From assembly GCF_013315695.1 (NCBI RefSeq), contig NZ_CP054353.1: DNA of 64,000 nt. One strand, written 5' to 3'. Positions 18,795-58,105 of the stretch are shown piece after piece (the stretch's first letter is position 1; each line of letters opens with the position of its first letter). Source of the stretch: Escherichia coli. Its GTDB lineage: Bacteria > Pseudomonadota > Gammaproteobacteria > Enterobacterales > Enterobacteriaceae. A program made the position numbers and the translations under genes. The notes under the pieces were generated by a model that saw only the letters and a program-made list of their open reading frames with translations, ran no database searches and was not told where the DNA came from.

Positions 18795-19223
18795 CAAACA
18801 ATTCCTCTGAAAAGAGCCGATGCCTCGGACAGCGCGGCGTTGTTCACGGGAGGCGTGATACAATCTGGCTATCGCGGGGCTTGCAGAACACAAAAAAGAA
18901 ACACTCTGTTTGTTTCATTAATTTTGTGAACTATATCACAATTGATTGTTTGTTAGCCAGATTAGGCCGTGACTTTTATTGCCGTACAGATTATGTGTTT
19001 TTTCAGCGGCATTAAGGGTATATCTTCCCACCGCCTCTGCATTCCTGTAGGAAATTAGTTTTGAATATCAATGAATTATTTTTATTCAGGTGACGATTAA
19101 AAAGGTATCAATTTCAAATCAGGCAAAAGTGCTATTTATACCGTAAGATTTATCTAAAGACGTCGATAACCAGGGTTCTCGCCTTGCAATGACCGGGTAT
19201 AAACAAGCAGGAAATTGATAGCA

Positions 19224-20810
19224 ATGAGTCATCGTGCACGACACCAATTACTGGCGTTGCCGGGCATTATCTTTTTAGTTCTCTTTCCCATCATTCTGTC
19301 GCTATGGATTGCCTTCTTTTGGGCAAAATCAGAAGTGAATAATCAGCTCCGAACCTTTGCTCAGCTGGCGTTGGATAAATCTGAGCTGGTCATTCGTCAG
19401 GCAGATTTAGTGAGCGATGCAGCTGAACGCTATCAGGGGCAAGTTTGCACCCCAGCCCATCAAAAGCGAATGTTGAATATTATTCGTGGCTATCTTTATA
19501 TTAATGAATTGATCTATGCCCGTGATAACCATTTTTTATGCTCATCGCTGATAGCGCCTGTAAACGGCTATACGATTGCACCGGCCGATTATAAGCGTGA
19601 ACCTAACGTTTCTATCTATTATTACCGCGATACGCCTTTTTTCTCTGGCTATAAAATGACCTATATGCAGCGGGGAAATTATGTGGCGGTCATCAACCCT
19701 CTCTTCTGGAGTGAAGTGATGTCTGATGATCCGACATTGCAATGGGGTGTATATGATACGGTAACGAAAACCTTTTTCTCGTTAAGCAACGAGGCCTCGG
19801 CAGCAACGTTTTCTCCACTGATTCATTTGAAGGATTTAACTGTACAAAGAAATGGCTATTTATATGCGACAGTTTATTCGACAAAACGCCCAATTGCGGC
19901 CATTGTTGCGACTTCATATCAACGTCTTATAGCGCATTTTTATAATCATCTTATTTTTGCGTTACCCGCCGGTATTTTGGGGAGTCTTGTTCTGCTATTA
20001 CTCTGGCTACGTATTCGACAAAACTATTTGTCTCCCAAACGCAAATTGCAACGCGCCCTCGAAAAACATCAACTTTGCCTTTATTACCAGCCAATAATCA
20101 ATATCAAAACAGAAAAATGTATCGGGGCTGAAGCATTGTTACGTTGGCCTGGTGAGCAGGGGCAAGTAATGAATCCGGCAGAGTTTATTCCGCTGGCAGA
20201 AAAGGAGGGGATGATCGGACAGGTAACTGATTATGTTATTGATAATGTCTTCCGCGATCTGGGCGCATACCTGGCAACACATGCCGATCGCTATGTTTCT
20301 ATTAACCTGTCGGCCTCCGATTTTCATACGTCACGGTTGATAGCGCGAACCAATCAGAAAACAGAGCAATACGCGGTGCGTCCACAGCAAATTAAATTTG
20401 AAGTGACTGAACATGCATTTCTTGATGTCGACAAAATGACACCAATTATTCTGGCTTTCCGCCAGGCTGGTTACGAAGTGGCAATTGATGATTTTGGTAT
20501 TGGCTACTCTAACTTGCATAACCTTAAATCATTGAATGTCGATATTTTGAAAATCGATAAATCGTTTGTTGAGACGCTGACCACCCATAAAACCAGTCAT
20601 TTGATTGCGGAACACATCATCGAGCTGGCGCACAGTCTGGGGTTAAAAACGATCGCTGAAGGCGTCGAAACTGAGGAACAGGTTAACTGGCTGCGCAAAC
20701 GCGGCGTGCGCTATTGCCAGGGATGGTTCTTTGCGAAGGCGATGCCGCCGCAGGTGTTTATGCAATGGATGGAGCAATTACCCGCGCGGGAGTTAACGCG
20801 CGGGCAATAA
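19224..20810 (+). CDS. pdeC: Cyclic-di-GMP phosphodiesterase (N-terminal membrane/periplasmic sensor domain plus C-terminal EAL domain)
   Basis: EAL-domain hallmarks ([31 protein letters not shown]) seen in translation; two TM segments flank a periplasmic domain. Confidence 0.9.
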
Positions 20811-56106: not shown

Positions 56107-56464
56107 CACGTTCTCTTGTCCTTGAATTGAAGACGCCACTATATCACCACAGCAAGAACAGAAAAGATGCTGGCAACTTCATAAAAAAATAAAATTTATA
56201 AAGTTTATTTTGTTGTGAATAATGGAGAGTGGCTTAAAATTTCATTTCATTTAATCACTTTAAAAACATGATGTTATTTGTTTTTCTGGTTTATTGGATG
56301 ATAGATGTTGCTGGATAGTGAGTGTCTTTAACGCTATTGCGCTGCCAGATGTAACTCTGTAAAACAGATCAGGAAGGCGGATTTCATCGATTTTGGGTGT
56401 TTTTAATTCATTAACATCACAAATGTTTTTTGATTGTGAAGTTTTGCGCGGGCGGAGAAGATGA

Positions 56465-56914
56465 ATGAAAAAGATTGCATTAGGCTGTGATCATGTCGGT
56501 TTCATTTTAAAACATGAAATAGTGGCACATTTAGTTGAGCGTGGCGTTGAAGTGATTGATAAAGGAACCTGGTCGTCAGAGCGTACTGATTATCCGCATT
56601 ACGCCAGTCAAGTCGCACTGGCAGTTGCTGGCGGAGAGGCTGATGGCGGGATTTTGATTTGTGGCACTGGCGTCGGTATTTCGATAGCGGCGAACAAGTT
56701 TGCCGGAATTCGCGCCGTCGTTTGTAGCGAACCTTATTCCGCGCAACTTTCGCGGCAGCATAACGATACCAACGTGCTGGCTTTTGGTTCACGAGTGGTT
56801 GGCCTCGAACTGGCAAAAATGATTGTCGATGCGTGGCTGGGCGCACAGTACGAAGGCGGTCGTCATCAACAACGCGTGGAGGCGATTACGGCAATAGAGC
56901 AGCGGAGAAATTGA
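56465..56914 (+). CDS. rpiB: Ribose-5-phosphate isomerase B / allose-6-phosphate isomerase (149 aa)
   Basis: MKKIALGCDHVGFILKHEIVAHLVERGVEVIDKG...; RpiB/LacAB family. Confidence 0.93.
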   Translation: MKKIALGCDHVGFILKHEIVAHLVERGVEVIDKGTWSSERTDYPHYASQVALAVAGGEADGGILICGTGVGISIAANKFAGIRAVVCSEPYSAQLSRQHNDTNVLAFGSRVVGLELAKMIVDAWLGAQYEGGRHQQRVEAITAIEQRRN

Positions 56915-56982
56915 GATTCATCCACTACTTGCATGGATGAGTAATGACTAATGTGGATAGAGTTTCTTTTTGAGGTTGGCTA

Positions 56983-57312
56983 ATGAAACGCTTTCCGCTA
57001 TTTCTTTTATTCACCCTGTTCACGCTGTCCACCGTTCCGGCCCAGGCCGATATTATCGATGACACCATTGGCAATATTCAGCAGGCGATTAACGACGCTT
57101 ATAACCCTGACCGTGGGCGAGACTATGAAGATTCGCGCGACGACGGCTGGCAGCGTGAAGTGAACGACGATCGGCGCAGACAATATGACGATCGCCGCCG
57201 CCAGTTTGAAGATCGCCGCAGGCAGCTGGACGATCGCCAGCGCCAGCTGGATCAGGAGCGTCGGCAGCTAGAAGATGAAGAGCGGAGAATGGAAGATGAG
57301 TATGGGCGGTGA
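56983..57312 (+). CDS. yjdP: Small secreted low-complexity protein YjdP (109 aa)
   Basis: Signal peptide followed by tandem DDRRRQ(Y/F/L)(D/E)DR repeats. Confidence 0.75.
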   Translation: MKRFPLFLLFTLFTLSTVPAQADIIDDTIGNIQQAINDAYNPDRGRDYEDSRDDGWQREVNDDRRRQYDDRRRQFEDRRRQLDDRQRQLDQERRQLEDEERRMEDEYGR

Positions 57313-57346
57313 TGTTGAGTCTAGAGCAGGCATCGCCCCTCACCCA

Positions 57347-58105
57347 TCACTCCACCCCAATCACCATCCCATCAAAACCCGCCTCAAACCCCGACGGCAG
57401 TGCGTTTTCCATCAGCCACGCATCAAACTGGTGGCTGATATGGGTCAGAATCACCCGTGGCGAGCGGATAACCTGATTCAGCGCAAGCACGGTATTTAAA
57501 TCACAGTGATTACGCGGTGCATCCTCGCGCGGCGGGTGGCTGCAATCAATCACCATTACCTGCGGCTGATTATTGCGTAAAAATTTCAGCGTTTTTTCCG
57601 GCAAGCCAGCGGTGTCAGACAGCCACGCCACCCGGCTGTGTGCCGTTTCCAGCAGATAACCGAAGGTCAGTTTTGAGTGGTTGAGCGGCAGGGGCGTGAC
57701 CTGTAACCCCTGTAAATCAAACACCACAAACGGTTCCATCGTGTGGCTGAAATCAAGCAGGCCCGGATGTTTAAACAGATCGTCGCAGCCCTGTTCATCC
57801 GGCGGGCCGTAGACCGGGATCTGATCGCCCACGCCCCAGCGCAGCGGAAACAGCCCCTGGACGTGATCCATATGATAATGCGTCAGCAAAAACTGCTGGA
57901 ACGATCCTGGCGACCAGCGATCGGCGAGATCGTGCAGCCCGGCGTCGATCAGGGTGATTGCGTCGTTAAACTTTACTACGCCGCTGCATGGCTGGCGGCG
58001 ATACTGCGGCGAGCGTCGTGCTCTGGCGCAGGCCACGCACTCACAGCCCCATGCGGGAACGCCCTGTGCGCCGCCAGTGCCAGTAAGTGTGAGGGTCAGG
58101 CTCAT
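57347..58105 (-). CDS. phnP: Phosphonate metabolism phosphodiesterase PhnP (MBL fold, 252 aa)
   Basis: HYHMDH motif; last gene of the phn operon. Confidence 0.92.

Follow-up and report, generated by a model that had tools for sequence, protein, structure and literature searches.

The gene yjdP, located between rpiB and phnP in a 64,000-nucleotide stretch of Escherichia coli DNA (contig NZ_CP054353.1; hereafter the window), probably encodes an exported protein with a helix of six heptads, fixed in number, and with a role in envelope stress. Its identity as the known core gene yjdP and its overall architecture are close to certain. The real hypervariability of the locus resides in a 9-bp repeat within the signal peptide; in one clonal lineage, this repeat makes the hydrophobic core longer.

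The open reading frame (ORF) specifies 109 residues plus a stop codon and scores 146 bits (E = 3.4e-43) against the NCBIfam equivalog NF041443, "DDRRRQL repeat protein YjdP", for which the cutoff is 90 bits. The alignment covers profile positions 1 to 101 of 101, making the ORF a full-length member, and this score together with the RefSeq annotation bears out the name given in the original prediction, a note made from the DNA letters by a model. Pfam PF28054 (YjdP) is assigned to all close database homologues; a Pfam scan with a model set that does not contain PF28054 gave just sub-threshold, coiled-coil-like matches. The window allele is 100% identical to that of strain GF131. Its DNA is 97% identical to that of K-12 and the protein 98%, with the substitutions L13F and S61N. 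The protein has the signal peptide, N-terminal motif and heptads of the YjdP family as described by NF041443 and PF28054, without any substantive difference, and gene, signal peptide and DDRRRQL repeats are all already catalogued in RefSeq, NCBIfam and Pfam. An exact-sequence look-up in a protein collection found neither the window allele nor the expanded alleles described below.

Among 5426 complete E. coli genomes, 5404 (99.6%) carry yjdP, annotated under its family name, and 22 lack any match (allele frequencies here and below are BLAST counts on complete genomes). Scanning one genome per species yielded 80 yjdP loci in more than 20 genera of Enterobacteriaceae, and the signal peptide and DDRRRQL-type heptad layout are seen across these loci. 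The ratio of non-synonymous to synonymous substitution rates (dN/dS) is 0.06-0.16 in comparisons with K-12, E. whittamii and Citrobacter, and the gene is under strong purifying selection.

The heptad repeat and the predicted long helix

The heptad repeat is real and well beyond chance, since Tandem Repeats Finder (TRF) reports a 21-bp period at 57166..57251 (4.1 copies, 78% matches), a direct-repeat search finds three overlapping 42-nt copies at a spacing of 21 nt, and the lag-7 identity over residues 62-109 is 26, compared to 7.7±2.3 in shuffled sequences, with none of 10,000 shuffles reaching 26. The units read DDRRRQY, DDRRRQF, EDRRRQL, DDRQRQL, DQERRQL and EDEERRM, placing Y68, F75, L82, L89, L96 and M103 at the hydrophobic "a" position. 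Inspection and the lag-7 statistic thus confirm a signal peptide followed by DDRRRQ-type repeats, as the original prediction had it. Its further claim that the product is made almost entirely of such repeats overstates their extent: the heptads occupy approximately 42 of the 87 mature residues, about half, and residues 23-61 are non-repetitive, comprising a conserved amphipathic helix (DIIDDTIGNIQQAINDAY) and then an acidic linker. Repetition at the nucleotide level, likewise claimed, exists with the 21-bp period given above, but is clear in the first four units alone (57166..57249); pairwise identity among the 21-nt units is just 57-81%, and this is therefore not a clean slippage-prone tract.

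Of the 80 species, 75 retain exactly six hydrophobic positions at heptad spacing, and the differences in length between species (101-116 aa) fall in the acidic linker. No other part of the gene is as constrained as the repeat segment (dN approximately 0.02 and dS 1.3-2.5 relative to Citrobacter; dN for the signal peptide in the same comparison is approximately 0.3). Heptad number appears to be selected to stay at six.

An AlphaFold2 monomer run on a 19-sequence alignment predicts a helix at residues 21-40 with predicted local distance difference test (pLDDT) scores of 55-66, no secondary structure at residues 41-52 (pLDDT below 50 at 44-46), and one continuous helix from residue 53 to 108, for which 10-residue blocks over 61-100 average pLDDT 89-97. 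The single long helix that had been anticipated from the repeats agrees with this model. Residues 23-40 are highly conserved across genera and have hydrophobic residues (I25, I29, I32, I36 and A39) spaced 3-4 apart; residues 41-61, between this amphipathic segment and the heptads, are acidic.

The long helix contains 36 attractive charge pairs at i+3/i+4, as against 21.8±3.5 in shuffled sequences, and 4 repulsive pairs, as against 21.1±3.5, with 0 of 5000 shuffles as extreme. In a set of 54 distinct homologous helices, the residue at position a is hydrophobic without exception (54/54; Y, L/F, L, L, L and L/M in heptads 1 to 6), while position d is R in the first three heptads and then E/D, D/E and D/E. 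The mean net charge per heptad runs from +0.9 and +1.0 through -0.06 and -0.06 to -1.6 and -2.7, and the heptad-specific residues e3 = Q, f3 = R, g3 = Q and b4 = D are invariant in all 54. We propose that in the exported mature protein a short amphipathic helix is joined by a flexible acidic linker to a helix of approximately 56 residues, the six heptads of which would be stabilised by dense Asp/Glu-Arg salt bridges from i to i+3/i+4. A single stripe of conserved hydrophobic residues (Y, F, L, L, L, M) would run along this helix, and because position d changes from Arg in heptads 1-3 to Glu/Asp in heptads 4-6, the helix would have a basic and an acidic end. A helix that pairs with itself in an antiparallel manner would require such a two-fold antisymmetric charge pattern, which suggests either antiparallel pairing or a specific partner. 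The helix may be regarded as a candidate length-defined structural element, which would most likely self-pair in an antiparallel manner or dock a specific envelope partner via its Leu/Arg/Gln face.

Sequence and fold searches of the PDB found no solved relative. Foldseek returned 0 matches for the monomer model and 2 matches, with E > 6, for a tandem two-copy model, and a sequence-profile search gave weak coiled-coil matches alone (M protein, GCN4 and EibD; E = 0.003 to 0.14). With canonical coiled coils such as GCN4 and the streptococcal M proteins YjdP shares heptad periodicity. Unlike in those proteins, where both a and d are hydrophobic, position a alone is hydrophobic in YjdP and d is Arg or Glu/Asp, and there is neither homology nor a fold match. 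Charged single α-helices (CSAHs, ER/K motif), which occur for example in myosin VI/X and caldesmon, offer a second comparison. YjdP resembles these in its long predicted helix, 64% of which is charged, with dense opposite-charge pairs at i+3/i+4 and like-charge pairs near absent; it differs in using Asp/Arg/Gln instead of Glu/Lys and in being bacterial and (by prediction) periplasmic. Moreover, a typical CSAH has no hydrophobic seam and is a stable monomer in solution, whereas YjdP has a conserved hydrophobic residue at every seventh position as well as the polarity switch at position d, and these two atypical features suggest pairing or docking.

Predicted export, a proposed promoter and a possible role in envelope stress

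By rule-based inspection, the signal peptide comprises an MKR n-region, the hydrophobic core FPLFLLFTLFTLSTV and PAQA followed by D; of 76 species homologues, 74 likewise have A-x-A and then D/N-x-x-D. The positive n-region, hydrophobic h-region and A-x-A are those of a substrate of the general secretion (Sec) pathway and signal peptidase I (SPase I), and there is no lipobox Cys and no twin-arginine. A Sec signal peptide cleaved after AQA would release an 87-residue periplasmic protein. Inspection also led us to reject a lipoprotein (no Cys) and a substrate of twin-arginine translocation (no RR motif).

A conserved 20-bp box lies 70-75 nt 5' of the ATG in all 77 usable species loci, whatever the upstream gene; in E. 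coli it overlaps the rpiB stop codon. Its information content is near maximal over approximately 17 columns, and it is this conservation of the box, not a single consensus match, that matters. Within it, the 14-mer TGAGATTCATCCAC (56912..56925) resembles the RcsB box, the consensus of which is TN(G/A)GAN4TC(T/C)NA (PMC7913699). A -10-like hexamer downstream would place the centre of the box near -42.5 and the transcription start near 56961, and GAGA or GAGG is kept at the Shine-Dalgarno position in other genera. A generic sigma-70 scan detected no promoter upstream of yjdP, as is expected for an activator-dependent promoter. We propose that yjdP has its own promoter of this kind, with a box resembling an RcsB site at the position given. 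Elsewhere in the window, two exact matches to the RcsB consensus are present on the plus strand at 19144..19157 and 19371..19384, 227 nt apart, a number at chance level.

Published RNA-seq data show that yjdP is induced 9.5- and 10.6-fold by a LolCDE inhibitor (PMC5105897, Table 1), in the company of mostly Rcs, σS and Cpx genes, including osmB, bdm, wca, rcsA, spy, ivy, mliC, osmY and cpxP (PMC5105897). An RcsB-like promoter box would explain this approximately 10-fold induction together with such genes, and we regard the assignment of yjdP to Rcs as evenly balanced. In our working model, the protein would be induced by Rcs or envelope stress and exported via Sec, and its salt-bridge helix would pair antiparallel or dock a partner. 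A molecular function of this type, i.e., self-pairing or partner docking in the envelope-stress response, is put forward tentatively and with some doubt.

Several points weigh against this reading. The 14-mer agrees with the RcsB consensus at 9 of the 10 specified positions and the last is C instead of A in 77/77 loci; approximately 2.6 consensus matches are expected by chance per 64 kb, so that a single match is not significant, and the box could serve an RcsB heteromer or a different regulator. Genes of the Rcs, σS and Cpx regulons respond together to the LolCDE inhibitor, and the RcsB dependence of yjdP is something that we infer. In addition, another study places yjdP among genes that are repressed when CsiR is induced and reports a genic ChIP peak for it (PMC5217608), which leaves the regulatory assignment provisional. 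On the protein side, the tandem two-copy AlphaFold2 model (predicted template modelling score, pTM, 0.47) has no readable helix contacts, and cleavage of the signal peptide is predicted from sequence rules alone. Finally, the E. coli papers mentioning yjdP that were examined yielded no functional work on the protein, in line with the initial statement that its function is unknown, which still holds experimentally; a look-up under the locus name b4487 gave irrelevant matches alone.

Composition alone would matter if YjdP were a generic hydrophilic periplasmic protectant, either a shield resembling hydrophilins and late embryogenesis abundant (LEA) proteins or a non-specific chaperone. Asp, Glu, Arg and Gln do make up 67% of the mature chain, and the gene is co-induced with osmY, yjbJ, ymdF, osmB and spy. 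However, we consider this role unlikely, as the heptad-specific invariant residues and the fixed heptad number argue for a specific structure or partner. Hydrophilins have more than 6% Gly combined with very high hydrophilicity; Gly accounts for 4 of the 87 mature residues of YjdP (4.6%), and the chain is predicted to be helical, not disordered. Like the periplasmic envelope-stress proteins Spy, CpxP and ZraP, YjdP is small and predicted to be exported and helical, and in one RNA-seq experiment spy (31-fold), cpxP (12.6-fold) and yjdP (9.5-fold) were induced together. Unlike them, it lacks the LTXXQ motif and any sequence or profile similarity, and the Spy/CpxP LTXXQ family was not matched in the Pfam scan. 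Nothing in the present analysis points to a chaperone function.

The gene downstream offers a different possibility. phnP is convergent with yjdP in 71 of the 80 species loci and is separated from its stop codon by a 34-nt gap in the window (57313..57346), and in some genera the two stop codons overlap by 4 nt. By contrast, rpiB is upstream in only approximately 17 of the 80, its place otherwise being taken by a nitroreductase, an SSF transporter or other genes. The phn adjacency is older than the rpiB adjacency and could hint at a functional link, with YjdP as a periplasmic accessory factor of phosphonate/phosphate metabolism, for example through an Arg-rich helix that binds phosph(on)ate ligands; such a role would account for its lasting position beside the end of the phn operon. 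We give this proposal little credence. The convergent orientation means that yjdP and phnP are not co-transcribed, and yjdP has its own conserved upstream box; neither that box nor the approximately 110 nt upstream of the start codon resembles a Pho box by eye, no pattern search having been run. Furthermore, yjdP persists in 9 of the 80 species (e.g., E. whittamii and Phytobacter) in which phnP was not detected within 6 kb, the E. coli papers mentioning yjdP, among those examined, are not about phosphate limitation, and short-range synteny can simply be inherited. An exported helix with a role in envelope stress remains our preferred reading.

Repeat number and the 9-bp tract in the signal peptide

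The original prediction held the gene to be prone to repeat-number variation, and for the heptads this is only weakly supported. Within Escherichia there are in-frame alleles of 95 aa, lacking two heptads (P0188, P0198 and P0200), and of 102 aa, lacking one (P0025, P0028, P0037, P0190 and P0192), and an E. albertii allele of 123 aa has two extra (P0041). At least six different junctions are involved, and events of heptad gain and loss therefore recur. The most widespread of these alleles, P0037 (102 aa), is found on at least 1000 contigs. These alleles are what favours viewing the Arg/Asp/Gln heptads as a slippage-prone, length-variable and possibly adaptive contingency or phase-variable locus, a view that is largely refuted and, in our judgement, very improbable. 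The same 102-aa allele, at 309 nt the commonest short one, is present in just approximately 16-18 of 5405 complete E. coli genomes, and the retention of six heptads across species, the low dN of the repeat and the divergence of its 21-nt units all speak against it. No heptad-number difference was seen among very close relatives, although close relatives were not compared for the 21-bp tract. In our reading, recombination between imperfect 21-bp units gives rise to the rare in-frame deletions and duplications.

All sequenced length variants of yjdP keep the frame. The 21-bp units and the 9-bp units described below are multiples of three, so that on/off phase variation by frameshift is impossible; both tracts are in-frame and within the coding sequence (CDS), and neither the frame nor the promoter spacing is shifted. 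An invariant repeat number together with absence of expression had been named as evidence that would count against the original prediction. What we find is that rare heptad variants exist and that the gene is expressed, as judged by the RNA-seq induction cited above.

Comparison of repeat number across strains, which had been suggested as a check, did reveal a variable tract, but this is the 9-bp signal-peptide repeat, missed by the original prediction, and not the heptads. In the window, TRF reports this repeat, which lies within the hydrophobic signal-peptide core, with a period of 9 and 2.7 copies. The window allele is in the short state, with 2 units, in which L13F, one of the two differences from K-12, creates the second near-perfect unit; elsewhere the tract has 3, 4, 5, 6 or 8 perfect units. 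The length variants of the first genome search (339, 348, 357 and 366 nt) are all expansions of this tract, with 6 units in G749 and REF1, 5 in 30345_1#31, 4 in AVS0155 and 3 in AR_0081 and S3. These six genomes have zero differences over 5 kb on each side and over the last 240 nt of yjdP. A copy number that differs among very close relatives is thus observed for the 9-bp tract alone (3-6 units, and 8 in a seventh genome).

A diagnostic 45-nt query detects the expandable haplotype in 548 of 5426 complete genomes (10.1%). When a query of 54 nt is used, the count of offset matches in a record appears to be two less than its number of units, a relation that held in the two cases checked: KE54 matches at 3 places and has 5 units, and IPCEC42 matches at 6 places and has a gene of 384 nt, verified as 8 units. 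By this offset count, a sample of 30 records contains 3 units (n = 7), 4 units (n = 6), 5 units (n = 12), 6 units (n = 4) and 8 units (n = 1), and the maximum of 10 places would imply a putative tract of approximately 12 units. In a record of this haplotype named O25b:H4-ST131, the YjdP, RpiB and PhnP proteins are the same as those of G749. A literature search combining ST131, tandem repeat and signal peptide returned nothing relevant.

Expansion takes the hydrophobic core from approximately 15 residues to 27 with 6 units and to more than 30 with 8 or more. In the endoplasmic reticulum (ER) system, long h-regions distinguish signal-anchors from cleaved signal peptides (PMC2120157). Because long h-regions behave as uncleaved signal-anchors, the tract might act as a frame-preserving "localisation switch" between a free periplasmic and an inner-membrane-tethered form, or might alter the route or efficiency of export; we rate this as a slim possibility. 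If true, such a switch would represent a contingency locus of another type than on/off phase variation, acting on a protein induced by envelope stress. The signal-peptide polymorphism of human APOB, a 9-bp, three-residue insertion/deletion (indel), is a parallel in that both are in-frame indels of a few hydrophobic residues within the h-region of a cleavable signal peptide (in YjdP, predicted to be cleavable). Unlike the two-allele APOB insertion/deletion polymorphism (PMC4201729), the yjdP tract is a multi-allelic array of 2 to at least 8 units that changes within one clone.

As first submitted, the yjdP finding was ordinary, given that the gene was already named and the predicted variability is mostly absent. 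The RcsB-like box, the fixed six-heptad antisymmetric helix and the 9-bp repeat now provide three testable handles on a near-universal E. coli protein. Of these, the clone-level hypervariability of the 9-bp repeat is the most interesting by-product: since the repeat differs among otherwise identical genomes of a clinically important lineage, it could serve as a typing marker, and it is possibly a natural experiment on h-region length.

Coordinates, flanking sequence and minor observations

The features of the locus are collected in Table 1.

Table 1. Features of the yjdP locus, in window coordinates.
Feature	Position	Strand	Basis
yjdP CDS	56983..57312	+	ORF list, NF041443, RefSeq annotation, dN/dS
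Heptad repeats (D/E)(D/E)RRRQΦ, residues 62-103	57166..57291	+	TRF, direct repeats, lag-7 identity
Long charged helix (predicted), residues 53-108	57139..57306	+	AlphaFold2, charge-pair statistics
Acidic low-confidence linker, residues 41-52 (length varies between species)	57103..57138	+	AlphaFold2, species alignment
N-terminal amphipathic helix (predicted), residues 23-40, DIIDDTIGNIQQAINDAY	57049..57102	+	AlphaFold2, cross-genus conservation
Signal peptide (predicted), residues 1-22, MKRFPLFLLFTLFTLSTVPAQA	56983..57048	+	Inspection; predicted SPase I cut before D23
9-bp in-frame tandem repeat (TTCACCCTG, TTCACGCTG, TCCACC...), encodes FTL/LFT	57010..57033	+	TRF
Conserved 20-bp box (window AATTGAGATTCATCCACTAC; family consensus ATTTGAGATTCCTCCGCTAC)	56909..56928	+	Cross-genus upstream alignment
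-10-like hexamer TAATGT (TAACGT in most genera)	56949..56954	+	Partly conserved columns T.A.TA...T
Shine-Dalgarno GAGG, 7 nt before ATG	56972..56975	+	Sequence reading
rpiB, upstream neighbour	56465..56914	+	ORF list
phnP, last gene of phosphonate C-P lyase operon, convergent	57347..58105	-	ORF list, related-genome annotation

Between yjdP and phnP, a terminator scan of the window found no terminator-like hairpin; two minus-strand "terminators" predicted at 57186..57203 fall within the GC-rich repeat, and their occurrence does not exceed chance. In K-12, the same interval contains an insertion of approximately 112 nt, G-rich, palindromic and REP-like, that is absent from the window (57310..57346). 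A G-quadruplex/hairpin element has been recorded in the yjdP-phnP interval (PMC5100583), which we infer to be this K-12 insertion. On the other side of the gene, the OI-167 island replaces upstream als genes in enterohaemorrhagic E. coli (EHEC; PMC10128022), and in O55:H7 DEC5D a hybrid histidine kinase of that island is upstream of yjdP in place of rpiB. The DEC5D locus also has a divergent signal-peptide N-terminus (MKRHSTLF...) and the extra substitutions R46L, R87H, D90N and R109Q, and the matches listed for O157:H7 yjdP have similarly divergent 5' ends.

An Rfam search (E ≤ 1) over 56400..57800 gave no match, and PADLOC gave nothing meaningful (PbeC at E = 0.04). An antisense ORF of 84 aa spans the repeat region on the minus strand (57089..57343); most likely it simply reflects repeat codons that are GC-rich and poor in stops. 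This mechanical ORF and an unstudied protein might be cited for the idea that yjdP is not protein-coding and that its repeat is a DNA- or RNA-level element, but the low dN/dS, the fact that more than 20 genera conserve the frame, the signal peptide and the Shine-Dalgarno, the empty Rfam search and the expression seen by RNA-seq make this almost certainly wrong. In strain FLI21, yjdP (locus positions 574-1679) is split by an IS1X2 insertion, which constitutes a natural loss of the gene.

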